Below, in pieces: positions 3,429 to 39,957 of a stretch of DNA of 64,000 nt. The notes under the pieces are model-generated. The model had not been told where the DNA came from. It saw nothing but the letters and a program-made list of their open reading frames with translations, and did not search any database. Numbering within the stretch: position 1 is the stretch's first letter; the number at the start of each line of letters is the position of its first letter. The stretch comes from Minisyncoccia bacterium (GTDB lineage Bacteria > Patescibacteriota > Minisyncoccia > Phycocordibacterales > UBA9973), in contig CBFHKH010000001.1 in assembly GCA_965656375.1 (NCBI GenBank), forward strand, positions 708,291 through 772,290, in the 5' to 3' direction. Position numbers and translations under genes: made by a program.

Positions 3429-5369
3429 ATGATAACTGAAGATCTTATCGACTATATACGAACAAAAAGAAAAGAAAATATAACAGATGATGAAATCACT
3501 TCACGACTCCTCCGTGCCGGATGGCATGATGCTGACATTACAGAAGGATTTCAAAGAATTACTCCCCCGGCGATTATTCCAAAAGCTTCTCCCGCCGCCG
3601 CGCTGGTACCTCCCATTGTGCCTCGTACACCAAAAGCTATTGTATTAGAACCACAAATCGAAGAAGATGATATTCCGGAAATCACTGCTACTGAACCGAC
3701 CTCTTATAAAATTCCCAAACCTGAAGTTGTAAAATCTACTGTACAAACAAGTTTTTCTCCGCAAAACTCTAAAGATGTGAAGCCCCTCTTTACTACTGAA
3801 GCGCCAAGGGTAGAACTAACTCCGACACTTATTCCAAAGGTGGCGCACCCTATACCTACTCAAAATAGTATCTCTCCAAAGAAGCCTCTTCCAGAAAGTC
3901 CTCTCATCAAAACTTTCTCAAGTGATATTCAAAAAGCAGAAGCGACCATCACCGAAGAATCAGTACCGAGCGCACGAAGGAAGATTGCTCGCAGTATCAT
4001 TATTGTTCTTGTCATTGGTCTTATTGGCGGTGCAGCATTTGCATTTCTAAAAGGATATATCTCATTTGCATCATTTATTAAAAAAGATCCAAAAGTTCTC
4101 CTCCTTGGTACCCCATCTCATCTTTCATCGCTTTCATCATATAGATCAGACACTACTATTACAGCTTCTTTCCCGTCAGTTGCAAATATCACAAATGGTC
4201 TTATTAGTGGAAATGTAGTTACATCTAAAGATACAGATTCAGTCTCGATTGATATAAAAAGTACTATACACAACAATTCTTCTAGCGCTTCCCATGCGCT
4301 TTCAGATCACGCGTTTCATATTAGAAGTTCACTGATACAAAATGATATTGATGTTGATTTGAAATATAATGGTACTACTTCTTTTATAACGATACCTGAT
4401 CTTAGTAATCTTTTTGGGGAACATGCACCGCTCTCGGGTCTTGTGGCAGTGGGGGATACTGAGTTTGATGAACTTCTGTCTCTCGTGCCAATACAATATA
4501 GAGATATGATACGAAATACTGATTTTTATAAAATGAAATCAAACGGGATTCCACCATATGTGATCAATAGCCTCAAGGTTTCCTTGAAAGAACTCATCGA
4601 TAGTGCAGATGTTTCGGAAAAACCAAAAGAAGTTATACAAGGGATAGATACATACCATTATATATTGAGTGTTGATCGAGCTGATACTAAAAAATTCCTC
4701 ATTTCTTTGGCCGATATTTTCATCACTACGCTTTCGGAGACTCAAAAGAAAAATCTTGAAGAAGCGCTCGGAGCATCGAATTTCGATACGATCGAGGTTT
4801 GGGTAGGTACGGATGATTCTTTGGTTCATCAATACAAATTCTCACTTTCGGTCCCACTCTCAAAGGTGATAAATTTAGAAGACAAAGGGATTGATGGCAA
4901 TACAGTAACATTTACATGGCAGTCGAGTGTATATGATTTCAATCAAGCTACATCAGTGCTTCCTTCGGAAACTGCGACGCCAGTATCTGACTTTGTTAAG
5001 CTTGGACTTGATAAGAATATTAAAACCACGATGGCATCCTTTATTACTGCTTCTAAGACGTTTCGAAATGCTCTCGGATCATATGGTAAAACCAATACGG
5101 GAGGAAGCTGCGTAAATCCAAGTGCGGGATCTCTCTTCTCTCCTGTCGGACATACGAAAGGTGCAGCGACTTCTGTTGGAGCTATCGCACATACTATGAA
5201 TATACTTGTCGCAAATCCAACCGGCGAAGGTTCCTGTCTCTCGACGCCGACTGCGTGGGCGATGGCGTTCCCGCTTGCAAGTGATCCGACCTCTTCGTAT
5301 TGTGTCGATAGTACTGGCTCATCTCGTATTCGTACATCTCCTCTTACGACAACGTTGTGTGATAAATAA
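3429..5369 (+). CDS. large membrane-anchored protein: short cytoplasmic N-terminal domain, Pro-rich linker, single TM helix, about 430-aa extracellular Ser/Thr-rich domain with C-terminal Cys pairs
   Basis: TM segment IARSIIIVLVIGLIGGAAFAFLKGY. The N-terminal motif …DDEITSRLLRAGWHDADITEGF… resembles a recurring small N-terminal domain of Gram-positive membrane proteins. No enzymatic motifs. Confidence 0.5.
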   Translation: MITEDLIDYIRTKRKENITDDEITSRLLRAGWHDADITEGFQRITPPAIIPKASPAAALVPPIVPRTPKAIVLEPQIEEDDIPEITATEPTSYKIPKPEVVKSTVQTSFSPQNSKDVKPLFTTEAPRVELTPTLIPKVAHPIPTQNSISPKKPLPESPLIKTFSSDIQKAEATITEESVPSARRKIARSIIIVLVIGLIGGAAFAFLKGYISFASFIKKDPKVLLLGTPSHLSSLSSYRSDTTITASFPSVANITNGLISGNVVTSKDTDSVSIDIKSTIHNNSSSASHALSDHAFHIRSSLIQNDIDVDLKYNGTTSFITIPDLSNLFGEHAPLSGLVAVGDTEFDELLSLVPIQYRDMIRNTDFYKMKSNGIPPYVINSLKVSLKELIDSADVSEKPKEVIQGIDTYHYILSVDRADTKKFLISLADIFITTLSETQKKNLEEALGASNFDTIEVWVGTDDSLVHQYKFSLSVPLSKVINLEDKGIDGNTVTFTWQSSVYDFNQATSVLPSETATPVSDFVKLGLDKNIKTTMASFITASKTFRNALGSYGKTNTGGSCVNPSAGSLFSPVGHTKGAATSVGAIAHTMNILVANPTGEGSCLSTPTAWAMAFPLASDPTSSYCVDSTGSSRIRTSPLTTTLCDK

Positions 5370-12444: not shown

Positions 12445-14160
12445 ATGAACAGTGAATCCCGTACGTGTCAGAATTGCTCCACCGAGTTCATTATCGAACC
12501 GGACGATTTCGCGTTCTATGAGAAGATGAAGGTCCCACCTCCCACATTTTGTCCAGATTGCAGGAATGTTCGTAGACTAACCTTCCGTAATGAAAGAGTC
12601 TGGTATCGCAGAACATGTGCTGCAACTAATCAGTCTATTTTATCAATGTTTGCCCCGGATGGGCCATATACTGTTTATGAAGAAAAGTACTGGAAGAGCG
12701 ATGCCTGGGATCCAATGGATTATGGCAAGCAGTATGATCCTAATAGAAGTTTCTTTGAACAACTTGATGAGTTGTTTAAAGTGGTTCCTCATCCGAACCT
12801 TATCCAGAAGAATAACGTTAATTGCGAATATTCGAATTACACTCTCAATGGTAAGAATTGTTACTATTGCGCCAGTTTCGATGAAGTTGAAGATAGCTCA
12901 TATTGTTTTACGAATAATACGCGAATAAAAAACTGCTTGGATCTGCATGTCTCAGCAGAATCTGAATATTCATACGAACTCATTGATTGCAAGAAATGCA
13001 ATCGCGTTGCATTTGCACAAAATTGTGAAGGATGCGTGAATTCGACATTTCTCTATGATTGCCGAAACTGTACAGATTGCTTTGGATGCGTAGGTTTGAG
13101 AAATAGGCAATATTCTATCTTTAATGAACAATATACAAAGGAAACATACAAAGAAGCACTCAAGCAAATCTGGGATGGGGGATATGTTGCATTTTTGCAA
13201 GCTCGCGATGCATTCAATGAGCTCAAGCTACAAATTCCACATAAGTTCTCAAACATTTTTAATTCAAATGATGTTTCCGGAGACAACATCGCTAATGTCC
13301 GCAATTGCCATTTCTGCTATGTGGCAAAGGACAATGTTGAAAATTGCAAATATTGCTATCGTGTTTGGGAAAACACAAAAGATGGGTGGGATACGTACTG
13401 TGCATGGAAAGGATCAGAGCTTTTCTATGAAGCTCACAGTATTATCGGGCAAAGAATCCTCTTTTCTCTCTATGTATGGGGAGGCCACGATATCGAATAC
13501 TCATACAACTGCTTTGACTGCAATAATATTTTTGGCTGTGTTGGTTTACGGAATAAGTCCTATTGTATTTTCAATATTCAGTACTCCAAAGAAGAATATC
13601 AAGCGTTGATCTCAAAAATAAAAAGCGATATGCTTGAGCGCAAAGAATATGGCGAATTCTTACCAAGCAGTATGTCCCCGTTTGCCTACAATGAAACAAT
13701 TGCCCAAGATTACTTCCCGTTATCTGAAACTGAAATCAAGCAAAAAGGCTACAAGTTCAGGCCAGCAGCGGAGAAGCACTATTCAGTTTCGCTTGCAACT
13801 GAAAATATTCCAGACAAAATTTCTGAAGTCGACGATTCTATACTTAATGAAGTCATTGCGTGCGAGCACGGAGGACACTGCTCCGATCTTTGTGCTACAG
13901 CATTCAAGATGACAAAAGATGAGCTTCAATTTTACAGAACTCTCAATTTACCTCTTCCACGCCTCTGTCCGAGTTGTCGCCATTTCAATCGTGTAAAATT
14001 AAAAAATCCCATGCAGCTTTGGGAACGAACATGTATGTGCGATAAAGCAAATCATTTTCATGGTGAAAATGCATGTTCAGAGAATTTCAAGACTCCGTAC
14101 GATCCAGCTCGACCGGAAATAATTTACTGCGAACAATGCTATCAAGCAGAAATCTTGTAA
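12445..14160 (+). CDS. Cys-rich multi-zinc-ribbon protein, paralog 1 of 3 (571 aa); no signal peptide
   Basis: N-terminal module CQNC…FIIEPDDFAFYEKMKVPPPTFCPDCR…RN…Y.R.C. Two internal CxxCxxCFGCVGLRN(K/R).Y modules. C-terminal module C…FKMT.DELQFYR.LNLPLPR.CPSCRH…YCEQCYQAEIL. Clearly homologous to 14419..16122 and 21318..23057. Confidence 0.6.
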   Translation: MNSESRTCQNCSTEFIIEPDDFAFYEKMKVPPPTFCPDCRNVRRLTFRNERVWYRRTCAATNQSILSMFAPDGPYTVYEEKYWKSDAWDPMDYGKQYDPNRSFFEQLDELFKVVPHPNLIQKNNVNCEYSNYTLNGKNCYYCASFDEVEDSSYCFTNNTRIKNCLDLHVSAESEYSYELIDCKKCNRVAFAQNCEGCVNSTFLYDCRNCTDCFGCVGLRNRQYSIFNEQYTKETYKEALKQIWDGGYVAFLQARDAFNELKLQIPHKFSNIFNSNDVSGDNIANVRNCHFCYVAKDNVENCKYCYRVWENTKDGWDTYCAWKGSELFYEAHSIIGQRILFSLYVWGGHDIEYSYNCFDCNNIFGCVGLRNKSYCIFNIQYSKEEYQALISKIKSDMLERKEYGEFLPSSMSPFAYNETIAQDYFPLSETEIKQKGYKFRPAAEKHYSVSLATENIPDKISEVDDSILNEVIACEHGGHCSDLCATAFKMTKDELQFYRTLNLPLPRLCPSCRHFNRVKLKNPMQLWERTCMCDKANHFHGENACSENFKTPYDPARPEIIYCEQCYQAEIL

Positions 14161-14161
14161 C

Positions 14162-14413
14162 ATGGAAAACTTAGAAACAAGAATTAAAGTAATCGAGGAG
14201 CGCAATAGAAGAGTCGAACTCGATAAAAAGTGGGAAACTAGTTTTACCCGACTCTTTTCGATAAGCCTCATTACTTACATTGTTGCTGTGATTGTTTTTT
14301 ATATGATGAATACGCAAAAACCATTTCTCAATGCACTTGTGCCAGTTCTTGGTTTTATCCTTTCTACCCAATCGCTTCCTGTTATTAAAAAACTATGGAT
14401 ACGAAATAAGTAA
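14162..14413 (+). CDS. small 2-TM membrane protein (83 aa) between Cys-rich paralogs 1 and 2
   Basis: Starts 1 nt after the upstream stop and ends 5 nt before the next start. Charged helical N-terminus followed by two hydrophobic helices. Confidence 0.45.
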   Translation: MENLETRIKVIEERNRRVELDKKWETSFTRLFSISLITYIVAVIVFYMMNTQKPFLNALVPVLGFILSTQSLPVIKKLWIRNK

Positions 14414-14418
14414 TTTGT

Positions 14419-16122
14419 ATGGAAACTCGTAACTGTATAAACTGTAAACAAAACTTTACCATTGAACCAGATGATTTTTCATTCTACGAAAAAATGAAGG
14501 TGCCCGCACCGACTTTTTGCCCGGAATGTCGAATGATCCGAAGAATGTGCTGGCGTAATCACAGATCATTTTATCGACGTGCATGTGCGATTTGTTCAAA
14601 ATCTCTCTTGTCAGTATATAAGGAAGATAATGCTCCTGTAATGTGTGTAGAATGTTGGAATTCTGATGATTGGGATAATTTTAAGCTTGGGAAAGACATA
14701 GATTGGAATCGCCCACTATTCTCACAAATAAATGAACTATTTGAATTTCAGCCAAGAGTTTTCCAATATCGAGCTGGGGGTATTGTCATAAATTCTGATT
14801 ATGCAAATTCTGTCGTAAATTCAAAGAATATCTATCTTTCTTTTTCAGTTTTAGAATCGGAAGATATCTTATTTTCTGAAAATGTAGATGGGGGTAAAAA
14901 TTCTATGGATTGTCTGTATGATTCAAAAATAGATACATGCTATTGGAATATAGATTCTTCAGAGAATTATAATTGTAAGTTTATGCTTGAAACAAGTAAA
15001 AATATAGATTCTTCTTTTCTCTATGATTGTGCTAATTGCCAGAATTGTTGTCTGAGTTCTAATTTAAGAAATAAATCCTTCGTGTTTAGGAACAAACAAT
15101 TACGTAAAGAAGAATATAATAAAGAGTTAGAAAAATTGTCACTCAGTACTTTCTCAGGTATAGAAAATGCAAAAAAAGAATTTAAAGAAGTTAGGAAAGA
15201 AGCTATCAGTAAGTATTCATCAATAATCAACTGTGTGAATGCTTCGGGTGAGCATATTTATAATTCCAAAGATGTGAAATCTTCTTTCCATGTTTTTGGT
15301 TCAGAGAATGTATCTGATAGTTTTAGAATAGTTTCTTCGAAAGACATGAAGGACTGTTGTTGGGTTCTGACAGGAGAATTGGAATACGAAACAATATCTG
15401 GAACAAATAACTCTAGTGCGCAAATAGGGTGCGCTGTTTGTTTTAATTCATCGCAAATGGAGTATTCTATTTTTTGTAGAGCATGTTCAAACTGTTTTGG
15501 ATGTGTTGGTTTGAAAAATGCGCAATACTGTATATTGAATAAACAGTATACGAAAGAAGAGTATGCAGATTTAGTTCCGAGACTGAGACAACATATGATT
15601 GATATACCATTCATTGATTCAAAGAATCGTGTATATAGATATGGAGAATTTTATCCATATGAAATGTCTCCATTTGGATATAATGAAACGCTAGCTCATG
15701 ATTATTTTCCAAAAACAAAAGAAATAATAGAACAGGAAGGATTCAATTGGAAATCAGCAGAATTAAAGGGGTATCAAATTACCATACAGAGTAAAGATTT
15801 GCCGGAGGATATTAAAGAAGTTAGTGAAAGTATACTAAACGAAGTTATAGGATGCCCGAACAATGGTAACTACATGCTTCAATGCACTACTGCTTTTAAA
15901 ATTTCACAAGAAGAATTTGTTTTTTATAAAAAAAATGAACTTCCATTACCACGGTACTGTCCAAATTGCCGCCATTATGAACGCTTAAGGGAGAGAAACC
16001 CTATGAAACTCTATATAAGAGAGTGTTCGAACGGCTGCGGGCGTAATTTTTCGACGACATACGCTCCAGATCGACCTGAGAAGGTCTATTGTGAGCAGTG
16101 TTACCAGGCAGAAGTACTCTAA
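14419..16122 (+). CDS. Cys-rich multi-zinc-ribbon protein, paralog 2 of 3 (567 aa)
   Basis: Same N- and C-terminal modules (CINCKQNFTIEPDDFSFYEKMKVPAPTFCPECR…; …FYKKNELPLPRYCPNCRHYERL…YCEQCYQAEVL). Conserved YGEFYPYEMSPFGYNETLAHDYFP segment. Confidence 0.6.
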   Translation: METRNCINCKQNFTIEPDDFSFYEKMKVPAPTFCPECRMIRRMCWRNHRSFYRRACAICSKSLLSVYKEDNAPVMCVECWNSDDWDNFKLGKDIDWNRPLFSQINELFEFQPRVFQYRAGGIVINSDYANSVVNSKNIYLSFSVLESEDILFSENVDGGKNSMDCLYDSKIDTCYWNIDSSENYNCKFMLETSKNIDSSFLYDCANCQNCCLSSNLRNKSFVFRNKQLRKEEYNKELEKLSLSTFSGIENAKKEFKEVRKEAISKYSSIINCVNASGEHIYNSKDVKSSFHVFGSENVSDSFRIVSSKDMKDCCWVLTGELEYETISGTNNSSAQIGCAVCFNSSQMEYSIFCRACSNCFGCVGLKNAQYCILNKQYTKEEYADLVPRLRQHMIDIPFIDSKNRVYRYGEFYPYEMSPFGYNETLAHDYFPKTKEIIEQEGFNWKSAELKGYQITIQSKDLPEDIKEVSESILNEVIGCPNNGNYMLQCTTAFKISQEEFVFYKKNELPLPRYCPNCRHYERLRERNPMKLYIRECSNGCGRNFSTTYAPDRPEKVYCEQCYQAEVL

Positions 16123-16143
16123 AGTGGGGATAAGTAGACCCGA

Positions 16144-16181
16144 AACACCTAAAAAAATTTGAATTTTTTTAGGTGTTTTAA
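16144..16181 (+). terminator. rho-independent terminator (aacacctaaaaaaa…tttttttaggtgtt)
   Basis: 14-bp inverted repeat plus T-tail about 20 nt after the paralog-2 stop. Confidence 0.65.
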
Positions 16182-16404: not shown

Positions 16405-19002
16405 ATGACAATAACCATCACCAAGAGAGACGGTACAAAAGCATCTTTTAATGCAGATCGAATCAACAAATCCATAGAGCGCGCATGCTATGGTATGACC
16501 GATCCTATCAGTAAAGTCATTCAGATCGCGACAGAAACACGACTAACTCTCTACGATGGTATCACTACCGAGGAACTTGATCTTGCGACGATCAACGCTG
16601 CGCTCCAAAATACGCAGTATGATCTTGAATTCGACAAGATTGCGACTCGGCTTCTCCTCAAAGTTATCTACAAGAAGGTGATGGGAGACTATGATCCTGA
16701 TAACGAAGCTGCGCTTATCACAAAAGACGAATTTGCAAAGCTCCATGGAGAGCATTTCAAGGAATATATCCTTGATGCTGTTGAACGCAATCTTCTTGAT
16801 GCACGTATGGCGACATTGTTTGATCTCGATCAACTTGCGGAGAGTCTCAATGTTCTCAATGATGAACTCTACAAATATTCTGGACTCTCGACGATGCTCA
16901 ATCGCTATCTCATGAAAGATGAGAAGCAGTCTCCTCTTGAAACCCCGCAATATTTTTGGATGAGAGTAGCGATGGGTATGTCGCTCTCTGAGAAAAATCC
17001 AACAGAGTGGGCGAAAAAATTCTATGCAAAGATGTCTGCACTTGAATATCTTTCTGCTGGCTCTTCAAACATTGGTGCAGGAACTCCAAAACCAAAACTC
17101 TCAAACTGTTTCTTGATGGAAATTCATGATGACATGGAACACATCGGTAAAACTGTTTCTGACGTGCTCCTTCTTTCAAAAGCAACCGGTGGTATTGGTC
17201 TATCTGTCACAAAACTCCGCGCTGAAGGTTCACTCCTTAAATCAAACAACACTGTTTCATCTGGACCAGTTCCATTCATGCATATCATCGACTCTGCTGT
17301 TCGCGCAGTGCAGCGCGGAGGCAAGAAAAAAGGCGCACTCTGCTTCTACATGGAGAACTGGCATTTGAATTTCCAAGACTTTCTCGATTTGAAACAGAAC
17401 AATGGTGATGACTATCGTCGTGCCCGTACGGCAAATACTGCTGTCTATATATCAGACGAATTTATGAAGCGTGTGATCGCAGGGGATGATTGGTATCTCT
17501 TTGATCCAAAGGAAGTTATAGATCTCAATGAGCTCTATGGCAAGGAATTCTCCAAGCGATATAACGAATACGTCGAGCAGGCAAAAGCAGGTCGCATAAA
17601 GCTCTATACGGTGCTTCCTGCCCGCCAGCAATACAAGAATATCCTTATTTCTCTCCAGACGACTTCACACCCGTGGCTTACCTGGAAAGATACGATCAAT
17701 GTTCGTGCGCTTAACAACAACACTGGTACGATCCACTGTTCGAATCTCTGTACGGAGGTCACGCTTCCAACTGACCGCGACAATGTAGCAGTTTGTAACC
17801 TTGTATCTATCAATATCGCTCGCCACATCGTAGCGGGACAGATTGATTGGCACAAGCTTGAGGATAGTACACGTCTTGCGATTCGCCAACTCGACAATCT
17901 TGTCGACATCAATGAACTTCCAATTCCAGAAGCTCGTCGCGCAGACTCAGAGAATAGAGCAGTTGGACTTGGACTCATGGGATTCTCTGATGCGATCGAA
18001 CAGCTCGGATATTCATACGAAGATAAAGAGGCGCATGATTTTTCTGACCAAGTATTTGAATTCATCTCCTACATGGCGATCGATGAAAGTGCAAATCTTG
18101 CGGAGGAGCGCGGTGCATATAAAAATTTCAAGGGATCAGAATGGTCAAAGGGCCATGTGCCGATCGATACGATGGACAAGCTTGCGCTTGAACGTGGACG
18201 CGAACTTCTTACAAAGAAAGATTCTGCAAAACTTCTCCCTGTTCTTGATTGGGACAAGATCCGCGCAAAAGTGAAGAAGGGAATCCGTAATGCGACTCTT
18301 CTTGCGATTGCACCAAATGCGAACATCGGCCTCGTTGCAGGGACTGCACCAGGTATCGATCCGCGATTTGCACAGATGTTCTCTCGCAACAAAATCTCTG
18401 GTAAATATCTTGAAATCAACCCTAACCTTGTGAAAGCGCTTCAAAAAGAAAAACTCTGGGAGACAGTTCGCGAACAGATACTCGAACATCATGGAGATAT
18501 TGAAGAGATTGCTGAAATCCCAGATACAATCAAGCGCATCTACAAGACTTCATTCTCAGTTTCTCCATATGCATATATTGAAGTCGCAGCTCGTGCGCAG
18601 AAGTGGGTAGATATGGGAATCTCACGCAATATGTATCTCGACATCCGAGATATCGATGAGATCATGAATATCTATACGAGTGCATGGGATCGAGGACTCA
18701 AGACTACATACTATCTCCATATGAAACCTCGCCACACTGCTGAGCAATCTACCATCAAGGTCAATAAATCAGAAGCGATGGGACGCCGTGGATTCGCAGC
18801 TCTCCGACAGGCAAAAGTCACACCTGTACTGGCAGAAGAAAAAGTCCTTGAAGAGAATGGTGTCATGCCACTCTCTGCGCTTCCAAAAGGAGAAAATATA
18901 GCAGATGTTGCTCGAATCCCGAGTAAAGAAGCCGAAGAAGCATCGCATATCTGCCTCCCTGAAGATCCTAATGATAAGTTTTTGTGTGAAAGTTGTCAGT
19001 AA
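16405..19002 (+). CDS. nrdA: class I ribonucleotide reductase alpha subunit with N-terminal ATP-cone
   Basis: ATP-cone N-terminus (ITKRDGTKASFNADRINKSIERAC). 865 aa. C-terminal Cys pair (…CESCQ). Immediately followed by nrdB. Confidence 0.85.
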   Translation: MTITITKRDGTKASFNADRINKSIERACYGMTDPISKVIQIATETRLTLYDGITTEELDLATINAALQNTQYDLEFDKIATRLLLKVIYKKVMGDYDPDNEAALITKDEFAKLHGEHFKEYILDAVERNLLDARMATLFDLDQLAESLNVLNDELYKYSGLSTMLNRYLMKDEKQSPLETPQYFWMRVAMGMSLSEKNPTEWAKKFYAKMSALEYLSAGSSNIGAGTPKPKLSNCFLMEIHDDMEHIGKTVSDVLLLSKATGGIGLSVTKLRAEGSLLKSNNTVSSGPVPFMHIIDSAVRAVQRGGKKKGALCFYMENWHLNFQDFLDLKQNNGDDYRRARTANTAVYISDEFMKRVIAGDDWYLFDPKEVIDLNELYGKEFSKRYNEYVEQAKAGRIKLYTVLPARQQYKNILISLQTTSHPWLTWKDTINVRALNNNTGTIHCSNLCTEVTLPTDRDNVAVCNLVSINIARHIVAGQIDWHKLEDSTRLAIRQLDNLVDINELPIPEARRADSENRAVGLGLMGFSDAIEQLGYSYEDKEAHDFSDQVFEFISYMAIDESANLAEERGAYKNFKGSEWSKGHVPIDTMDKLALERGRELLTKKDSAKLLPVLDWDKIRAKVKKGIRNATLLAIAPNANIGLVAGTAPGIDPRFAQMFSRNKISGKYLEINPNLVKALQKEKLWETVREQILEHHGDIEEIAEIPDTIKRIYKTSFSVSPYAYIEVAARAQKWVDMGISRNMYLDIRDIDEIMNIYTSAWDRGLKTTYYLHMKPRHTAEQSTIKVNKSEAMGRRGFAALRQAKVTPVLAEEKVLEENGVMPLSALPKGENIADVARIPSKEAEEASHICLPEDPNDKFLCESCQ

Positions 19003-19115
19003 ATAGCCATTAGCAGTTAGCATTTAGCTACTAGCCAATGCACATTATAATCTAACTAGTCTTTCAGTAATTACTCGCTAAATGCTAGGAGCTAATCGCT
19101 AAAAGCTAACTATAT
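19003..19115 (+). promoter_or_regulatory. heptad-repeat leader: (TAGCNNN)x5 - 38 nt containing TATAAT - (NGCTANN)x5 - 5 nt - ATG of nrdB
   Basis: tagccat tagcagt tagcatt tagctac tagcc … cattataat … cgctaaa tgctagg agctaat cgctaaa agctaac tatat ATG. Exact period 7. The two arrays are mutually complementary (TAGC/GCTA). The same design recurs before fusA and, 3' half only, before rplK. Confidence 0.55.
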
Positions 19116-20129
19116 ATGATTTTAGGAAAAGCATCACCTGAAGATATGAATCTTCACCCCATGCATTATAAGTGGGCATATGAACTCTATAACCAAGCAG
19201 TGCGTAATACCTGGTTCCCGCATGAAATAGCTCTTGGTGAAGACCTCGTTGACTGGAAAGCAATGACCGAAGACGAGCGCCATGCTGTCGAATTTTTGAT
19301 GGCATTCTTTAATCCAGCAGAGCTTATTGTTAATCGTAGTCTAGCTCTTGGGGTGTACCCGTATATCAAAAGTCCAGAATGTCACTTGTATTTGGCAAAG
19401 CAGATGTTTGAAGAAGCGAACCACTGCGTATCATTTGAATACGTACTTGAGACATTCCCACTCGATCGAGATCGTGTTTACAATGTCCACCTTGAGCTTG
19501 ATTCAATGGTAAAGAAAGAGGATTTCATCAAGAAATATCTGATTCGCATGACCGAAGATACACTTGATATCGAAACCGAAGAAGGAAAGAAAGATTTCGT
19601 CCGTAATCTTGTTGCAACAAATATCGTCATGGAAGGAATCTGGTTCTACTCAGGCTTCATGGTTGCACTTTCATTCCGTCAACGCAATCAACTCCGCAAC
19701 CTCGGTTCAATGATCAACTGGGTTATCCGTGATGAGTCTCTTCACTTAAAATTCGGTATTAATTTGATCCACACTATTCTCGAAGAAAATGCAGAAATTC
19801 TTACGGAAGAATTCGCAAACGAGATCCGCGATATTGTCATTGAAGGAGTGAACCTTGAAGTTGCATACAACAAAGATTTATTCCCGAAGGGTATTCTCGG
19901 GCTCAATGCTGACTATGTGAACCAGTATGTACAGTATGTAGCTGACCGCCGTCTTGAAGAGCTTGGCCTTGCTCCGCACTTTAATGTCACAAATCCTGCG
20001 AAATGGATGGCTACCTCTACTGACGTCTATGAGCTCGTAAACTTCTTCGAAGCGCAGAATACAGCATACGAAGTTGATGCTCATGGTCACAACAATGAGA
20101 AGAAGCATGACAAAAAAGAGGAAGAGTAG
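19116..20129 (+). CDS. nrdB: class I ribonucleotide reductase beta subunit (di-iron/tyrosyl radical)
   Basis: 337 aa, E..H iron-ligand spacing (…EEANHCVSFEYVLE…), directly downstream of nrdA. Confidence 0.8.
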   Translation: MILGKASPEDMNLHPMHYKWAYELYNQAVRNTWFPHEIALGEDLVDWKAMTEDERHAVEFLMAFFNPAELIVNRSLALGVYPYIKSPECHLYLAKQMFEEANHCVSFEYVLETFPLDRDRVYNVHLELDSMVKKEDFIKKYLIRMTEDTLDIETEEGKKDFVRNLVATNIVMEGIWFYSGFMVALSFRQRNQLRNLGSMINWVIRDESLHLKFGINLIHTILEENAEILTEEFANEIRDIVIEGVNLEVAYNKDLFPKGILGLNADYVNQYVQYVADRRLEELGLAPHFNVTNPAKWMATSTDVYELVNFFEAQNTAYEVDAHGHNNEKKHDKKEEE

Positions 20130-20142
20130 TACCATAGAGTAT

Positions 20143-20721
20143 ATGAAATCAAAACAAGCAAAATTCATACTTATAATAGCCGCAGTCATTATTGTTGTTA
20201 TAGGTCTTGGCTTCCTTACTAATAAAGCACAAGGTCCGGGTACATACGATGAATTCGCAAAAGCACTTAAAGCAGGTGGCGCAGAATTTTATGGAGCTTT
20301 TTGGTGTCCACATTGCCAAGCACAAAAAGAAGAGTTTGGTACTTCTAAGAAATACCTTCCCTATATAGAGTGTTCAAATCCGAACCAGTCAATGACCCAG
20401 GTCTGTAAAGATAAAAAGATCGAAAGCTATCCAACATGGATGTTTAGAGATGGCATTACTCTCAAATCAACTGTTCCACCTACCGTCTGTGATATCAAGC
20501 CAGGTAAAGCAGGTGAAGATGCAGTTTGTGCAAATGCTTCTTCACAGTATTACAAGACATGGGTTTTCCCTGGGTATAAATTCTCTATCAAGAGTCCATC
20601 TGATCCGATCGTTGAGAATGGGGTTTGGAAATTCCCACAAGGCTCAGAAACAACCGGAGAACTACCACTACAATTCCTTGCAGAGCAAATCGGCTTCACT
20701 CTACCAGCTGATACAGAATAA
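20143..20721 (+). CDS. DsbA/BdbD-like thioredoxin-fold thiol-disulfide oxidoreductase with N-terminal membrane anchor
   Basis: CxxC in FWCPHCQAQKEEF. N-terminal TM (FILIIAAVIIVVIGLGFL). The start was taken at the in-frame ATG at 20143, since the track ORF 20074.. would overlap the nrdB 3' end. Confidence 0.6.
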   Translation: MKSKQAKFILIIAAVIIVVIGLGFLTNKAQGPGTYDEFAKALKAGGAEFYGAFWCPHCQAQKEEFGTSKKYLPYIECSNPNQSMTQVCKDKKIESYPTWMFRDGITLKSTVPPTVCDIKPGKAGEDAVCANASSQYYKTWVFPGYKFSIKSPSDPIVENGVWKFPQGSETTGELPLQFLAEQIGFTLPADTE

Positions 20722-20722
20722 T

Positions 20723-21271
20723 ATGCCAGCATATGTAGAAACAGTAAATACGTTACTCGCTCTCGGCACAATTGGAATGCAGATACTTATTGTACTGATC
20801 TTTGCCTCTCTTCTCTTTATGCGATCTCGCAATAATGCCATACTTATATTTTTCAATAAGTATGGCTTTTATTGTGGTTTTACGATTGCACTCTCATCAG
20901 TATTGATCTCTCTCTTTTATTCTGAAGTTGTCGGATTTGCTGCATGTGAGCTTTGTTGGGTTCAGAGGTACTTTATCTATCCACAAGTATTGATATTTGG
21001 TTTGCTTATCTGGTGGAAAGAAAAGAAACAGCTTATAAACTTGAGCGGTCTCATCGCGTTCTTGGGAATGTTCGTCTCAATCTATCATGTCTATATAGAA
21101 AATGGGGGCAGTTCAAGTCTCGCATGTTCAAACTACGTCGAGGGAAGCGTCACCTGCGCTGCTCGCTATATATTTGAATTTGGCTATGTCACTATCCCCG
21201 TCATGGCGCTGACAGCCCAAGTGTTTATTCTCGTTCTTATTTTGAACCACAAATACATGGCTCGAACATAA
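20723..21271 (+). CDS. disulfide bond formation protein B, BdbC-type
   Basis: CELCWVQR matches the BdbC/DsbB first-loop motif (B. subtilis BdbC has CELCWYQR). A second Cys pair C…C lies in the second loop. 4 TM helices. The start was taken at the in-frame ATG (MPAYVETVN…) abutting the upstream stop. Confidence 0.75.
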   Translation: MPAYVETVNTLLALGTIGMQILIVLIFASLLFMRSRNNAILIFFNKYGFYCGFTIALSSVLISLFYSEVVGFAACELCWVQRYFIYPQVLIFGLLIWWKEKKQLINLSGLIAFLGMFVSIYHVYIENGGSSSLACSNYVEGSVTCAARYIFEFGYVTIPVMALTAQVFILVLILNHKYMART

Positions 21272-21317: not shown

Positions 21318-23057
21318 ATGCAAGCAGAATCTCGAATCTGTCAGAACTGTAAACAAAATTTCACTATCGAATCCGAGGATTTTTCATTCTACGAGAAAAT
21401 CAAAGTCCCTCCGCCGACGTTTTGTCCGGGGTGTTCACACCAGCGTCGCTTTGCGTGGAGAAATACGCATGCACTTTACCACAGGCCAGATAGTGTAACA
21501 GGGAAGGATCTAATTTCTATCTATCATCCTGATGTGAAGATGAATGTTGTTGATCAGAAATATTGGTGGAGTGATGAATGGGATGCCTTTGAGTTTGGAG
21601 AGGGTATAGATTTCTCGAAACCGTTCCTTGTTCAATGGAAAGAGTTACGGGACAGAATACCATTTCAGGCGCTTTCAAATTCAAAGGCAGTAAACAGTGA
21701 TTACTGCAATGTCGCAGAAGAAAGTCATGATTCGTACCTGTGCTCAGCATCCTGGAAGATAGAACGGACACTGTATTCTGATTCGATTTTTGAGACCAAG
21801 GATTGTATTGATGTATGTGTTGTTCATAAAAGTGAGCTGTGTTACGAAGATGTATATTGTACCGATTCGTACAAATTATTTTACAGCGAGAAGTCAAATA
21901 GTTGCACTGATTCTTTCTTTTTATACGATTGCAAGGGTTGCGTAGATTGTTTTATGTGCTCAAATCTTCGCAATAAAAGTTATTGTTTTCAAAATATCCA
22001 ATATTCGAGAGAAGAATATCATACAAAGGTGGCCGAGTATGATCTCGGAAGTTTTTCTACTATAGAGAAACTAAAAAAACAATTTAAGGACTTAAAACAA
22101 ACGGCAGTGCATAAATATGCAAATATCATAAACAGTCACAACACAACTGGTGATAATGTCGACCATGCTGATAATTGTAAATCTTGTTTTGATATAAGTG
22201 GCGGTGTTAAAGACAGCGCACATACATTTTGGGGAGCAAAGGGATTAAACGAGTGTTACTACTGTGGTCCTGGCATTGGATGGGGCGATACCCTCTATGA
22301 ATCTTTTGATGGCGGTGCGGGAGGAGGAAAATTTGTTGCGACTTCTGTCGTTTATTATTCAACCGAAGTTGAATATTCATTTAATTGCTACAGCTGTAAA
22401 AATTGTTTTGGCTGTATAGGTCTCCGTAATAAATCGTATTGTATTCTTAATAGACAATACACCAAAGACGAATATTTCGAATTACTTTCTAAAGTAAAAG
22501 AACATATGGTTTCTATGCCGTATGTAGATAAGAAAGGAAGGATATATTCCTATGGAGAGTTTTTCCCGATAGAACTTTCTCCGTTTGCGTATAATGAAAC
22601 TATTGCGAATGATTTCTATCCGTTATCGAAAGAAGAAATAATTGAAAAAGGGTATTCCTACAGGGAAAAGGAAGACAAAAAATATACACCGACGCTAGAA
22701 ACTAATCAAATTATGGATAACATAAAAGATGTTACGGATGATATTTTGAATGATATTATTGTCTGTGACTCTTTACCTATTTCAGACCTCTGTCCTAAAG
22801 TATTCAAAATCACCCAAGCTGAACTCGCATTCTATCGAAAGTTCAACATACCTATTCCCAGAAAGTGCTACCAATGTCGACACAAAGAACGTTTTCTTAA
22901 ACGCCCACCGCTAAAACTCTGGCACCGGTCATGCATGTGTGAAAAATCAAATCATGCCCATGAAGGCAACTGTCCGAATGAATTCGAGACGAGTTATGCA
23001 CCTGAGCGGCCAGAGATGATTTATTGCGAGAAATGTTATCAACAAGAAGTTATTTAA
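21318..23057 (+). CDS. Cys-rich multi-zinc-ribbon protein, paralog 3 of 3 (579 aa)
   Basis: CQNCKQNFTIESEDFSFYEKIKVPPPTFCPGC… N-module. NCFGCIGLRNKSYC internal module. SYGEFFPIELSPFAYNETIANDFYP. C-module …FYRKFNIPIPRKCYQCRH…YCEKCYQQEVI. Confidence 0.6.
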   Translation: MQAESRICQNCKQNFTIESEDFSFYEKIKVPPPTFCPGCSHQRRFAWRNTHALYHRPDSVTGKDLISIYHPDVKMNVVDQKYWWSDEWDAFEFGEGIDFSKPFLVQWKELRDRIPFQALSNSKAVNSDYCNVAEESHDSYLCSASWKIERTLYSDSIFETKDCIDVCVVHKSELCYEDVYCTDSYKLFYSEKSNSCTDSFFLYDCKGCVDCFMCSNLRNKSYCFQNIQYSREEYHTKVAEYDLGSFSTIEKLKKQFKDLKQTAVHKYANIINSHNTTGDNVDHADNCKSCFDISGGVKDSAHTFWGAKGLNECYYCGPGIGWGDTLYESFDGGAGGGKFVATSVVYYSTEVEYSFNCYSCKNCFGCIGLRNKSYCILNRQYTKDEYFELLSKVKEHMVSMPYVDKKGRIYSYGEFFPIELSPFAYNETIANDFYPLSKEEIIEKGYSYREKEDKKYTPTLETNQIMDNIKDVTDDILNDIIVCDSLPISDLCPKVFKITQAELAFYRKFNIPIPRKCYQCRHKERFLKRPPLKLWHRSCMCEKSNHAHEGNCPNEFETSYAPERPEMIYCEKCYQQEVI

Positions 23058-23079: not shown

Positions 23080-23493
23080 ATGCTTGTAGAAAAGATCAAC
23101 AAAGGGGATAGTAGCGCAGTGTTTGTATACACCACATGTAGAGACAGGGAAGAAGCTCGCTTAATTGGGCTCGAATGCATCAGAAATAGACTTGCGGTTT
23201 GTTCAGACTTCTGGGAGATAAACTCTGTGTACCCATGGAATGGAGTCATAGAAGAAGTTTCCCAATATATGCTTATGCTTACTACTGAAAAGCGCCTCAG
23301 CCCGGAACTTATTTCATTTATTGGCACGATCCATTCATATACAACGCCCATGATATCAGAGCTTGATGTCGCTCTCATGAATTCAAGTTACAAATTTTGG
23401 GCAGATACTACACTCGATAGCAGAGAAGATTATGTTTTAGAAGAGGATATCAGTAGAGAAGAGAGCAACACCAACATTGAAAAGCTCAAATAG
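23080..23493 (+). CDS. cutA: divalent-cation tolerance protein CutA
   Basis: VYTTC.D.EEA..I…L.ERLAAC…I.S.Y.W.G.IEE pattern along 137 aa is typical of CutA1. Confidence 0.65.
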   Translation: MLVEKINKGDSSAVFVYTTCRDREEARLIGLECIRNRLAVCSDFWEINSVYPWNGVIEEVSQYMLMLTTEKRLSPELISFIGTIHSYTTPMISELDVALMNSSYKFWADTTLDSREDYVLEEDISREESNTNIEKLK

Positions 23494-23543: not shown

Positions 23544-25292
23544 ATGCATGTTGATGAAAAGACAATCATAGACCTCCTCAATAGTTCAGATCTTGTCTCA
23601 AAGACTGACGTCGCGATGGCGCAGAAAAAAGCAAAAGAGACCAATCAATCAATTGGTGCTGTTCTTATGAGTGATGGTAAATTGACTGAGAAAGACTGGA
23701 ATAGTATGCAGGCGGTATCGCTCGGTATTCCGTTTATTAGTCTCAAGGGTGAACACATCGATCCTGAAGTACTCATGCTCATTCCAGAACCGATTGCTCG
23801 CAATAACAACATTATCGCTTATAAAAAGACTAAACTTGGCCTCGAAGTGGCTATGCTCGATGTCGATAACCTTTCAGTTATCGACTTTATAAAGAAAAAG
23901 GTAGGCCTCAAAATCCTTCCTCGAATGACAAGTTCGGATTCTATAAAAGAAGCACTCACTCAGTACAAAAAAAGTCTCCAAGCTGACTTTGAAGATATCA
24001 TCAAAAAAGAATCAGCATCGATCAAGCCCGTATCCGAAGACGGTGAAGAAAAATCCGAAAAGGAACTTAAAGAACTTGCCGAAGATCTACCAATCGTAAA
24101 AATTGTCGATACACTTATCTCTCACGCAATTCTCCAAGGTGCGTCTGATGTTCATATTGAACCAGGAGAAGCCTCACTTATCGTTCGTTATCGTATCGAC
24201 GGAATTCTTCATGATGCCATGGTCCTTCCGCGTGATACCGCATCGGGGATCGTTGCACGCATCAAAGTGCTCTCGAGCCTTAAGCTCGACGAGAAGCGCT
24301 TGCCCCAAGACGGACGATTCAAGATCGTTAACGATCAGGGGAGTGTTTCGTTTCGTGTTTCAACTCTTCCGACATACTTTGGTGAAAAGACCGTTATTCG
24401 TATCTTGCGGGAGAATACAAAAGGATTTTCTCTCGAAGGTCTTGGATTTCACGGTGAAGCGCTTGAACGTATTCACGATGGTATGAAGCAGCGAACGGGA
24501 ATGCTTCTCTGTGCTGGACCAACTGGTTCGGGTAAGACAACGACGCTTTACACTGTGCTCGATATTTTAAATACTCCAGATGTGAATATTTCCACAGTTG
24601 AAGATCCGATCGAATATCAGATGGCCCGTATCAATCAAACGCAGACAAAAGCCGAGATTGGACTAACATTTGCAAACGGTCTTCGTACGCTACTTCGTCA
24701 GGACCCGGATATTATCATGGTGGGAGAGATCCGCGATGGAGAGACAGCATCGCTTGCCGTCAATGCCGCACTTACTGGTCACCTTGTGCTCTCTACAATC
24801 CATACAAACTCGGCGGTGGGAGCTATTCCACGTATGATCGATATGGGAGTTGAATCGTTCCTCATCGTCTCAACGGTGAAGACTGTGATCGCGCAGCGTC
24901 TTGTTCGTAAGCTTGCTGATGGAAAACAGAAATATTTCTTGAGCCCTGCGGAACGAGAAGCACTTGAGAAAATAGTCAGTCTTGATCGTGTCCTTGGGTT
25001 TCTGAAGAAGGAAAAGATCGTCGGGGATGATGCCACCTGGGATACTATTCCGTTCTATAAGCCAGCGCCAAGCGAAGAATCCGAGAGTGGATTCAAAGGT
25101 CGTGTCGGTATTCATGAAGTCATGAAAGTTACAACCACAATCAAGGAGATGATCTTAAAAGGTGCTCCCGATGTAGAGATTGAGAATAAAGCAAAGGAAG
25201 AGGGCATGATGACGATGCTCGAAGATGGCATATTCCTCGCTGCTCAAGGGCTAACATCTACAGAAGAAGTCCTCCGTGTTGTGTCTGAGTAA
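23544..25292 (+). CDS. pilB: type IV pilus assembly ATPase PilB (GspE family)
   Basis: Walker A GPTGSGKTTTLY. GspE N-terminal domain. Asp box and His box present. 582 aa. Confidence 0.85.
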   Translation: MHVDEKTIIDLLNSSDLVSKTDVAMAQKKAKETNQSIGAVLMSDGKLTEKDWNSMQAVSLGIPFISLKGEHIDPEVLMLIPEPIARNNNIIAYKKTKLGLEVAMLDVDNLSVIDFIKKKVGLKILPRMTSSDSIKEALTQYKKSLQADFEDIIKKESASIKPVSEDGEEKSEKELKELAEDLPIVKIVDTLISHAILQGASDVHIEPGEASLIVRYRIDGILHDAMVLPRDTASGIVARIKVLSSLKLDEKRLPQDGRFKIVNDQGSVSFRVSTLPTYFGEKTVIRILRENTKGFSLEGLGFHGEALERIHDGMKQRTGMLLCAGPTGSGKTTTLYTVLDILNTPDVNISTVEDPIEYQMARINQTQTKAEIGLTFANGLRTLLRQDPDIIMVGEIRDGETASLAVNAALTGHLVLSTIHTNSAVGAIPRMIDMGVESFLIVSTVKTVIAQRLVRKLADGKQKYFLSPAEREALEKIVSLDRVLGFLKKEKIVGDDATWDTIPFYKPAPSEESESGFKGRVGIHEVMKVTTTIKEMILKGAPDVEIENKAKEEGMMTMLEDGIFLAAQGLTSTEEVLRVVSE

Positions 25293-25303
25293 TACATACA
25301 AAT

Positions 25304-26518
25304 ATGAATTTTAAATACAAGATCCAAACCAAAGATAAACAGATCATCGAAGGCTACAAGGATGCACCCGATAAGTTCACTCTTGCTCGTGAATTGCGCG
25401 AACAAGGGAGTACTCCGCTTCTTATAGAAGAATCAAAAGGAAAAGGAGAAAAATCAATATTGAAGATGGATCTTTTTGGACATGTTTCTCTTTCCGACAA
25501 AATGATATTCACAAATAATCTCTCTGGAATGCTTTTAGCGGGGCTGTCTCTGACTCGAGCACTTACCATACTTGAGAAACAATCAAAGAATGTCACATTC
25601 AATAAAATCCTTACTTCGCTTGTTGAAGATGTAAACAAGGGTAACACGCTTTCCGATGGCATGAAAAAATTTCCTAAAGTTTTCTCTGGTATCTTTGTAT
25701 CGATGGTTCACTCTGGTGAGGAATCGGGCGGTTTACCCGCGGCACTTTCTGAAGTCGGGCTCAATCTCAAAAAGTCATATGACTTGAGAAAAAAAGTCAA
25801 AGGGGCGCTCATGTATCCATCAATCATCTTGATCGCGATCTTCATTATTGGAGTACTTATGATGATGTTCGTTGTTCCTACGCTTACTAAGACATTCAAA
25901 GATCTCGGAGGGGATCTGCCTGGTTCGACAAAGTTTGTCATCTGGCTTTCGGATACCATCAGTGAGCACACGCTTTTATTCTTGCTTGCTGTCGCGGTGA
26001 TCGTCACGATTTTTGTTCTTTTTGCCAAGCTTAAGTCAACGAAAAAATACTTTGATTTTATCGTTTTGCGGTTACCGGTGATCGGCACTATCGCCAAAGA
26101 GGTGAATACTGCTCGTACTGCTCGTACGCTCTCATCACTTCTTACATCGGGGGTAGATATGTCTCGAGCGCTCTCTATCACTCAAGAAGTTTTGCAGAAC
26201 ACATACTACAAAGACCTGATAGCTCGGTCAATTGTAAATATAGAAAAAGGTGAACCGCTCTCGACAAGCTTCAAAGAAGGAACAAAACTCTATCCAGTTA
26301 TGATGGGGGAAATGATCGAAGTGGGTGAAGAAACTGGTAATCTGTCCAAAATGCTTATAGATATCGCAAATTTCTATGAGGCAGAGGTAGATAACAAGAC
26401 AAAAGATCTCTCCACAATCATCGAACCGGTTCTCATGGTGTTCATTGGAGGTGCCGTCGGATTCTTTGCTGTTTCTATGATCTCTCCTATGTATTCAGTT
26501 ATGAGTAATATAAAATAA
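25304..26518 (+). CDS. pilC: type IV pilus inner-membrane platform protein PilC (GspF family)
   Basis: Two T2SS-F repeats, 3 TM helices, 404 aa, directly downstream of pilB. Confidence 0.8.
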   Translation: MNFKYKIQTKDKQIIEGYKDAPDKFTLARELREQGSTPLLIEESKGKGEKSILKMDLFGHVSLSDKMIFTNNLSGMLLAGLSLTRALTILEKQSKNVTFNKILTSLVEDVNKGNTLSDGMKKFPKVFSGIFVSMVHSGEESGGLPAALSEVGLNLKKSYDLRKKVKGALMYPSIILIAIFIIGVLMMMFVVPTLTKTFKDLGGDLPGSTKFVIWLSDTISEHTLLFLLAVAVIVTIFVLFAKLKSTKKYFDFIVLRLPVIGTIAKEVNTARTARTLSSLLTSGVDMSRALSITQEVLQNTYYKDLIARSIVNIEKGEPLSTSFKEGTKLYPVMMGEMIEVGEETGNLSKMLIDIANFYEAEVDNKTKDLSTIIEPVLMVFIGGAVGFFAVSMISPMYSVMSNIK

Positions 26519-39945: not shown

Positions 39946-39957
39946 TTTTTATAGCGT

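Follow-up and report, generated by a model that had tools for sequence, protein, structure and literature searches.

This report deals with a 64,000-nucleotide stretch of the genome of a Minisyncoccia bacterium (GenBank assembly GCA_965656375.1, contig CBFHKH010000001.1, positions 708,291 to 772,290 of the forward strand), the whole of which is called the window, and in particular with three of its genes, which encode large, cysteine-rich proteins of one and the same family. Family gene 1 (12445..14160, plus strand; 571 aa, paralog type 'B') and family gene 2 (14419..16122, plus strand; 567 aa, paralog type 'Q') stand in tandem on the two sides of a small gene, termed TM83 here (14162..14413, plus strand), whose 83-aa product has two transmembrane (TM) segments, and family gene 3 (21318..23057, plus strand; 579 aa, paralog type 'A') follows 5 kb downstream. 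The hidden Markov model of the family matches the three large proteins with E-values of 1.5e-283, 2.4e-216 and 4e-242, respectively. A sequence-only reading of the same DNA had preceded this analysis, and its basic description was found to be accurate: the open reading frames (ORFs), their coordinates and the homology of the three large proteins are as it described, the proteins aligning from end to end at ~41% identity with all of the quoted motifs present, and the ORF coordinates indeed leave spacers of 1 nt between gene 1 and TM83 and of 5 nt between TM83 and gene 2. Its figure of more than 40 cysteines in each protein was too high, the actual numbers being 37, 34 and 34 for genes 1 to 3, with a family median of 34 and a range of 22-42. 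The predicted lack of a signal peptide held up as well; the proteins of genes 1-3 have neither a TM segment nor a signal peptide, their 19-residue Kyte-Doolittle maxima (KD19) being 0.87-1.17, as against 2.3-2.6 for TM83 and a major facilitator superfamily (MFS) transporter that served as a control.

The family to which these proteins belong is very large. In a set of 5.8 billion proteins, at least 7,154 homologs were matched; clusters at 50% identity numbered 5,056 at E ≤ 1e-3 and 2,226 at E ≤ 1e-30, and at least 577 copies are found in GTDB species representatives. The best 150 cluster representatives all have one architecture and, if the few truncated entries are disregarded, a length of ~545-610 aa. 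Wherever the source gives a name, it is 'hypothetical protein', and the named lineages all fall in the NCBI Parcubacteria group (Nomura-, Lipton-, Staskawicz-, Giovannoni-, Sungi-, Jorgensen-, Brenner- and Niyogibacteria, Paceibacterota, Minisyncoccia), with two outlying labels, Bacteroidales and Gammaproteobacteria, that are attached to contigs of 1.8-2.2 kb (loci L013 and L040) and probably represent mis-binned Parcubacteria fragments. Scans of the four window proteins against Pfam, NCBIfam, PADLOC and PHROG gave nothing at threshold, and sequence searches of the PDB gave nothing significant, whether the query was one sequence, the profile of the full protein, that of the N-terminal module or the ATPase finger described below. 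The published literature, searched for the family, for zf_Tbcl and for the type IV coupling proteins (T4CPs) of Parcubacteria, holds no description of it. With no library match at threshold and every named match in the Parcubacteria group, the suspicion that the family is undescribed and restricted to the Candidate Phyla Radiation was thus borne out; it is a Parcubacteria-restricted, very large, unannotated family of soluble cytoplasmic proteins. A phage or mobile-element origin was also considered, and was rejected because the family was not found among IMG/VR viral contigs, phage records or plasmids; together with the lack of PADLOC and PHROG matches, this gives no indication of an anti-phage defence system or a phage family.

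Across 80 genome loci seeded on family genes, which constitute our neighbourhood sample, the copies form same-strand arrays of 2-8 members, with eight in a row in locus L023. Adjacent copies are 28-54% identical (median 41%, n = 87 pairs) and include no recent duplicates; judged by this divergence, the arrays consist of old paralogs that separated anciently. The locus closest to that of the window (L001) carries the nearest ortholog of gene 1, at 77% identity, and an ortholog of gene 2 at 52%. The earlier expectation of a tandem arrangement conserved in relatives holds in part: tandem paralogs are widely conserved, and the bracketed membrane-protein gene is not.

Domain architecture and predicted metal sites

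An AlphaFold2 model built on a 79-sequence alignment (pLDDT 92, pTM 0.90) divides the polypeptide into successive regions, which are given here with their plus-strand coordinates in gene 1. Residues 1-95 (12445..12729) make up the N-terminal module, in which two small sub-domains each consist of a hairpin and a helix. Residues 96-250 (12730..13194) comprise a helix, strands at a strict 12-residue period and then helices; in gene 1 this solenoid, M1, has about eight rungs of 12 residues, and its cap, DCxNCxxCFGCVGLRNKxY..N.QY.KEEY, precedes the closing helices. Residues 251-400 (13195..13644) form a second solenoid, M2, with the cap NCxxCxNxFGCVGLRNKSYCI.N.QY.KEEY. Residues 401-470 (13645..13854) are modelled largely as coil with short helices and are distinguished by conservation and charge, carrying the motif YGEFxP...SPFAYNETxAQDYFP, whereas residues 471-571 (13855..14160, stop codon included) form a C-terminal module that resembles the N-terminal one. 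Comparison by hhalign revealed homology between the N- and C-terminal modules (99.1%) as well as between M1 and M2 (aa 105-243 against aa 255-393; 99.9%), and the protein is therefore, by these profile comparisons, internally duplicated. Conservation across 167 full-length copies, drawn from 81 sources, is concentrated in the terminal modules, in the solenoid caps (FGCxGLRNKxYCIxNxQYxKEEY) and in the block YGEFFPxExSPFAYNETIAQxYFP; the rungs of the solenoids vary. The terminal modules are basic (median isoelectric point 8.3-8.6), the block at aa 401-470 is strongly acidic (family median 4.4), and the entire protein is mildly acidic.

The predicted build, which is fixed throughout the family, thus runs from one double zinc finger through two capped β-solenoids with 12-residue rungs and an acidic block to a further double zinc finger. 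The solenoids and the acidic block take up ~375 of the 571 residues, and the label 'multi-zinc-ribbon', which the sequence-only reading had given to the whole protein, does not describe them. When the full model was compared with the PDB by Foldseek, only a generic solenoid resemblance emerged, with TM-scores ≤ 0.12 and no specific relative, and the 374-aa core consensus had no Pfam match. The structural and profile comparisons that had been proposed as a check for known domains accordingly returned no confident match, Pfam similarities being sub-threshold throughout. Overall, the family is a new architecture assembled from known kinds of parts.

The sub-threshold similarities lie in the terminal modules and are consistent in their arrangement. 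The consensus N-terminal module matches PF13451 (zf_Tbcl) with its residues 5-44 (model positions 4-44 of 48; 19.5 bits, cutoff 24) and PF23477 (zf_Tbcl_2) with its residues 51-83 (model positions 1-33 of 37; 18.9 bits, cutoff 27), i.e., in the correct order and at near full length, and the consensus C-terminal module matches PF23477 at 15.5 bits. Of 79 individual members, 36 have sub-threshold matches to PF13451 and 19 to PF23477. The window proteins themselves have no match to PF13451, for which the best member, at E = 2.6e-4, stays below the gathering threshold of 24 bits, and the gathering threshold of PF23477 is likewise not reached, gene 2 scoring 14.9 bits. Finger 1 has the two CxxC knuckles of a treble clef, with modelled strands at residues 4-7 and 14-17 followed by helices at 19-28 and 37-45.

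The behaviour of the cysteines across the 167 copies differs sharply between the terminal modules and the solenoids. Three quartets are ~90-100% conserved, namely C8/C11/C36/C39 of the zf_Tbcl-like finger 1 (99-100%), C473/C483/C508/C511 of finger 1' in the C-terminal module, and C530/C544/C562/C565 of finger 2', which is of the zf_Tbcl_2 or CxxC-x17-CxxC type. A fourth quartet, C58/C61/C79/C82 of the second N-terminal finger, occurs in ~42% of the copies; gene 2 has it complete (C56/C59/C76/C79, with the spacing CxxC-x16-CxxC), genes 1 and 3 lack it, and in gene 1 the finger is degenerate with C58 alone left. Positions 61, 79 and 82 are gained or lost jointly (phi 0.96-1.0), as positions 483, 508 and 511 are lost jointly (phi 0.84-0.89), and since the terminal cysteines thus come and go as units, the terminal fingers behave as metal sites. 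The loss of the second N-terminal site, in ~58% of the copies, bears no sign of compensation. The solenoid cysteines, in contrast, vary independently (phi ≤ 0.48; ≤ 0.32 in the cap), other copies having Ser, Val, Leu, Ile, Thr, Ala or Met in their place. On account of this independence and these substitutes, the cysteines of the rungs are to be seen, as far as covariation can tell, as a ladder that packs the core, and as neither metal ligands nor disulfide partners.

The metal sites would then be the three to four predicted terminal Cys4 sites alone, and the expected zinc load would be 3-4 per chain. The cap cysteines (206/209/212/215 and 356/365/374) might be suspected of forming an extra site, but their independent, hydrophobic substitutions weigh against it. 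The proposal of zinc-binding modules therefore stands for the termini, where it is suggested by the sub-threshold zf_Tbcl and zf_Tbcl_2 matches, the quartets gained and lost as units and the homology to an ATPase finger presented below, and falls for the internal CxxCxxCFGC modules; since the cysteines of cap and rungs vary independently, these form the end of a β-solenoid, its final rungs with the cap, and are not zinc ribbons. Two other candidate roles were set aside. Fe-S binding by the CxxCxxCxxC cap is unsupported, as the losses are independent and the substitutes hydrophobic. A disulfide-rich secreted protein, prompted by the Dsb genes upstream of gene 3, is contradicted by the missing signal peptide, by the lack of pairwise cysteine covariation and by the fact that Dsb genes are not recurrent neighbours. 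A cysteine-rich protein need not, then, be one with many metal sites, most of the cysteines here belonging to the solenoid core, and the family offers a useful case of a ladder of reduced cysteines in a cytoplasmic β-solenoid.

TM83 and the surroundings of the genes in the window

The tight packing of gene 1, TM83 and gene 2 had been taken by the sequence-only reading to imply an operon in which the small membrane protein is functionally coupled with both cysteine-rich proteins; in such a system it would anchor or partner the two. TM83 is indeed a real gene with two hydrophobic segments (KD19 maximum 2.34), for which 198 homologs of ~83 aa and 55-74% identity were found. Besides the 1-nt and 5-nt spacers, a dedicated three-gene system would be consistent with the position of a stable hairpin (16142..16179, plus strand; dG -17.7 kcal/mol, z = -6.2), T-rich on its 3' side and probably an intrinsic terminator, which is found solely after gene 2. 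It would also be consistent with the unusually low GC content that TM83 (0.345) and gene 2 (0.338) have in common, the neighbouring genes being at 0.42-0.45. Moreover, in four of the eight other TM83-seeded contexts (among loci L084-L095) the order is ArgRS-TM83-family gene(s)-IleRS, where ArgRS and IleRS stand for the arginyl- and isoleucyl-tRNA synthetase genes and the gaps are 3-5 nt. It was found, however, that TM83 is missing from all 80 family-seeded and all 80 ATPase-seeded loci, which hold more than 300 family genes among them, and that in L001 the gene 1 and gene 2 orthologs directly adjoin each other (gap 0 nt), with no TM83 between them. Conversely, the other four contexts (loci L084, L086-L091 and L094-L095) contain TM83 without a family gene, one as ArgRS-TM83-IleRS and three in unrelated surroundings. 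The family genes that do follow TM83 are of various subtypes, the positive cases all lie in a single ArgRS..IleRS syntenic block, and equally tight gaps are the norm genome-wide in these genomes.

Adjacency of TM83 and family genes is therefore recurrent but narrow, being confined to that one block, and TM83 is an independent conserved gene which family genes sometimes adjoin, and not a family-wide partner. Since TM83 is missing in relatives and occurs in family-free contexts, the three-gene system is unsupported; as a family-wide system it is largely refuted, and we regard it as highly improbable that gene 1, TM83 and gene 2 constitute a dedicated unit. The tandem pair with TM83 in the window is a local arrangement in a compact genome. 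What the stable hairpin after gene 2 and the gap of merely 21 nt between the upstream MFS transporter gene and gene 1 do make plausible is a single transcript that covers gene 1, TM83 and gene 2, perhaps starting with the MFS gene, and ends at 16142-16179.

Several side observations concern TM83 and its surroundings. The TM83 family, itself unannotated, usually follows ArgRS directly, and the labels 'SecF' and 'sugar phosphate permease' given to its members by JGI look spurious. Annotation of small genes such as TM83 is inconsistent; in a second assembly of the window locus (L096, Logan contig of ERR15116721) the gene caller left TM83 uncalled, so that a 258-nt gap appears between genes 1 and 2. 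TM83-seeded loci are rich in genes of deoxynucleotide metabolism (dUTPase, thymidylate kinase, ThyA, serine hydroxymethyltransferase, NUDIX). The IleRS genes in three loci (L081, 7856-end; L085; L088, 5954-9448) encode proteins of 1148-1164 aa with a histidine-phosphatase domain (His_Phos_1) inserted in tRNA-synt_1.

Elsewhere in the window, genes for a class I ribonucleotide reductase, NrdA (with ATP-cone) and NrdB, lie straight after the terminator of gene 2 (16405-20129). Directly upstream of gene 3 (20074-21271) are those for a membrane-anchored, DsbA-like thioredoxin-fold protein with a CPHC motif and for a DsbB-domain protein; their ORF calls overlap by ~270 nt, and the true DsbB start is therefore probably further downstream. 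Gene 3 is followed after 22 nt by CutA1, a divalent-ion tolerance gene (23080-23493). Within 6 kb of family genes CutA1 was found in 7 of 81 loci, where a rough model would expect ~1.2, and it is adjacent to them in L014, L023, L050 and L057. Behind CutA1, from 23544-26518 onward, comes a type IV pilus or type II secretion system-like cluster (a PilB/GspE ATPase, then a T2SSF platform protein). Further away, two proteins, both probably surface proteins or adhesins, are encoded at 38038-41985, the former of 635 aa with YadA-head repeats and a Peptidase_S74 endosialidase chaperone domain, and the latter of 675 aa with a CarboxypepD_reg domain. A 646-aa ORF at 3429-5369 is another large unannotated protein, for which Pfam gave nothing at E ≤ 0.01. 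Four tRNAs were all that a scan of the window with Rfam returned.

Linkage with VirD4-like ATPases

In the 80 family-seeded loci, the commonest neighbour outside the family is a VirD4/TraG/TrwB-like P-loop ATPase with matches to T4SS-DNA_transf, TrwB_AAD_bind, DUF87 and TraG-D_C. Of these loci, 22 carry it; as a rule it shares the strand of the family genes and is 3-90 nt away from them, and in some cases it flanks an array on both sides. The reverse test, on 80 metagenome loci seeded on the ATPase, found a family gene in 51 and one within 300 nt in 43; among loci of at least 9 kb, a family gene is present in 30 of 37 and adjacent in 26 of 37. An adjacent family gene was found for 38 of 76 long ATPases and, with the ATPases clustered at 80% identity, for 20 of 39 clusters. 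The genomic linkage between the family and soluble VirD4-like ATPases is thus strong and bidirectional. The gene-neighbourhood comparison suggested by the sequence-only reading therefore upheld the paralog arrays, which recur, and not TM83 as the partner, the recurrent neighbour being the ATPase.

The ATPases come in a long and a short form, and two gene layouts were distinguished (F, family gene; AL, long ATPase; AS, short ATPase). Layout 1 consists of F-F, a divergent PaaX-like gene, dnaK, AL, zero to three F, AS, dnaJ and TM194; layout 2 consists of F-F-F followed by AL, with no dnaK. DnaK was found in 34 and DnaJ in 14 of the 80 ATPase-seeded loci. Layout 1 constitutes a super-operon in Nomurabacteria-like genomes (L097-L176, e.g., L107 4983-10336; L111; L072 1914-12389), closed by TM194, a membrane protein of 194 aa, and the presence of two FtsK/HerA-superfamily ATPases within an Hsp70 operon is itself unusual. 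The ATPases have no TM segment (KD19 ≤ 1.19), and their neighbours are dnaK, dnaJ and PaaX-like genes with no virB; they accordingly do not appear as membrane-anchored coupling proteins attached to a VirB4 channel. In a few loci, ComEC (Competence domain; L159, L168, L172) and TfoX_N (L102, L135, L139) genes lie a few genes away from the long ATPase, which hints at a possible link with DNA uptake.

Apart from neighbourhood, the long ATPase shares a domain with the family. Its C-terminal extension contains a bona fide PF23477 finger (47 bits), which was found in 58 of 64 complete long ATPases, in none of 23 short ones and in none of the 558 other proteins encoded nearby; in NCBI and JGI the finger-bearing ATPases go by the name 'CxxC-x17-CxxC domain-containing protein'. 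In hhalign comparisons this finger matched the second fingers of the family, N2 at 97.1% and C2 at 92.4%, whereas the first fingers, serving as controls, gave 9% (N1) and 2% (C1). By profile comparison, then, the second fingers of the family are homologous to the CxxC-x17-CxxC finger of the long ATPase. As for the window, gene 3 belongs to the subtype found in the order AL-F-AS, being 52-55% identical to genes of L111, L072, L097 and L098, with a best match anywhere of 56%.

Possible functions and comparison with known systems

Taking the linkage and the shared finger together, we consider it possible, and propose tentatively, that the family proteins are zinc-stabilised adaptors or cargo of an orphan VirD4-like ATPase machinery. 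On this view, all paralogs would bind one shared partner, either the ATPase or a nucleic acid that it handles, through their constant basic fingers, and would differ in specificity through the variable faces of their solenoids. A number of observations weigh against this proposal. The 64-kb window contains neither a VirD4-like ATPase nor a dnaK operon, and L001 contains no such ATPase either, so that the adjacency to T4CP-like genes, and with it the ATPase link of genes 1-3, is drawn at the level of the family. No ATPase was found within 6 kb in 58 of the 80 family-seeded loci, and about half of the long ATPases stand without an adjacent family gene. The ATPase-seeded loci all belong to a single clade of at least 65% identity, and the counts obtained from them are therefore inflated by shared ancestry. 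Adjacency in very compact genomes is, moreover, weak evidence of physical interaction, and the evidence fits adaptor and cargo alike, as it does docking to protein and to nucleic acid.

An extended form of the proposal would have the family and its paired soluble VirD4-like ATPases constitute an unrecognised, Parcubacteria-specific machine, in which a hexameric translocase has its substrates chosen by adaptor paralogs and is wired into the Hsp70 operon; we hold this to be rather unlikely as matters stand. If it were true, such a machine would account for the 'orphan' T4CP homologs, numbering in the thousands, that Patescibacteria carry without a type IV secretion system (T4SS). Parcubacteria genomes are smaller than 1 Mb, and the family is nonetheless kept in 3 to 8 or more copies in these small genomes, the three copies of the window occupying ~8% of it; multi-copy investment of this order in so small a genome implies an important, lineage-defining function. 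A published survey counted 5,713 VirD4-type homologs in 2,918 genomes of Patescibacteria, only 148 of these homologs being near virB4, and suggested possible exaptation while leaving the function open (PMC12102498). The ATPase link provides a testable handle on that question, i.e., the role of the ~5,700 T4CP homologs away from a T4SS.

Other explanations of the same evidence have to be considered. The family proteins could be stand-alone nucleic-acid binders, for instance accessories of DNA uptake or processing, that bind through their two basic finger modules, the ATPase being a translocase on the same substrate and not a direct partner. The basic charge of the terminal modules and their Arg-rich helices (CR..RR...RN.R) are in keeping with this, as are the ComEC and TfoX_N genes that a few loci have close to the long ATPase; furthermore, relatives of VirD4 and FtsK are DNA motors (PMC12857230), and a role in transcription or with nucleic acids has been suggested for CxxC-x17-CxxC proteins (PMC12704099). 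That the proteins are stand-alone binders of this kind nevertheless seems to us unlikely. More improbable is a role as effectors that the VirD4-like coupling ATPase would recognise for secretion into a host cell. Tandem effector paralogs are encoded beside virD4 in Bartonella, and the diverged paralog arrays adjoining T4CP-like genes invite this analogy; the variable surfaces would also be compatible with a model of target diversification. Patescibacteria are in addition host-dependent and carry an essential T4SS (PMC12857230, PMC12102498). The ATPases, however, have no canonical N-terminal membrane anchor of a T4CP and are rarely near virB4, and the C-terminus of the family is a folded zinc finger ending in YCExCYQxEV[LIV], where an unstructured, positively charged tail would be expected of a translocation signal. 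Tightly folded, zinc-clamped solenoids would also be poor substrates for translocation, and the paralog types, of old date and conserved from one lineage to another, are not fast-evolving; the absence of the family from the phage, plasmid and viral collections argues in the same direction.

The Hsp70 context, for its part, raises the thought of a zinc-buffering or redox-sensing chaperone, Hsp33-like or DnaJ-like, that works with Hsp70. Many loci do have the cassette placed between dnaK and dnaJ, the proteins possess several Cys4 sites each, and CutA1 recurs as a neighbour at the frequency given above, as it does behind gene 3. Still, merely 3-4 sites per 570 aa would make for poor zinc storage, the uncompensated loss of the second N-terminal site in the majority of copies speaks against such a role, the dnaK-dnaJ context is found in just one of the two layouts, and there is no similarity to the zinc domains of Hsp33 or DnaJ; a chaperone of this kind is accordingly very unlikely. 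A cytoskeletal or filament-forming β-solenoid, comparable to bactofilin or curli, with the end modules assembling head-to-tail, would be the most distant of the suggestions, and we find it scarcely credible.

Among known systems, the closest parts are the fingers. The first finger of either terminal module, CxxC..F.I...D..FY.K....P..CP.CR..RR, resembles PF13451, a 'probable treble clef domain' for which we know of no established function, and differs from it in never occurring apart from a second finger and a 375-aa solenoid core, to which it is fused. The second finger of either module, C58-x2-C61-x17-C79-x2-C82 with its ...P.VYCxxC signature, resembles PF23477, the 'CxxC-x17-CxxC domain' of NCBI and JGI, although the N-terminal copy lacks its cysteines in most members, window genes 1 and 3 included, and the first knuckle of the C-terminal copy, C530(xC532)...C544, is not a CxxC. 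Small CxxC-x17-CxxC proteins of Methanosarcina mazei bind zinc, as determined by inductively coupled plasma mass spectrometry (PMC12704099). The solenoids call to mind curli CsgA, antifreeze or ice-binding solenoids and left-handed β-helix acyltransferases, to which the family nonetheless has no sequence relationship and, by the Foldseek scores given above, no specific structural one. The family protein is cytoplasmic, with no signal peptide; its cysteines do not covary in the pairs that disulfides would demand, and each chain holds two solenoids, each with a unique conserved cap. With regard to the acyltransferases in particular, the hexapeptide repeat, the 18-residue triangular coils and a structural superposition were looked for and not found.

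The comparison that matters most for the proposed adaptor or cargo role is with the type IV coupling proteins VirD4, TraG and TrwB and their partners, such as the adaptors on DotL or the effector arrays at the side of virD4. Unlike canonical T4CPs, the ATPases described here are soluble, occur as a long and short pair, and are encoded in a dnaK-dnaJ operon away from virB genes (PMC12102498), and unlike the known T4CP adaptor and effector families, none of which has the present architecture, the family proteins combine double fingers with double solenoids. The likeness lies in the direct adjacency of family genes to VirD4-like ATPases that carry TrwB_AAD_bind, T4SS-DNA_transf and TraG-D_C, in the multiple paralogs of the family and in the domain that they share with the C-terminal extension of the ATPase.

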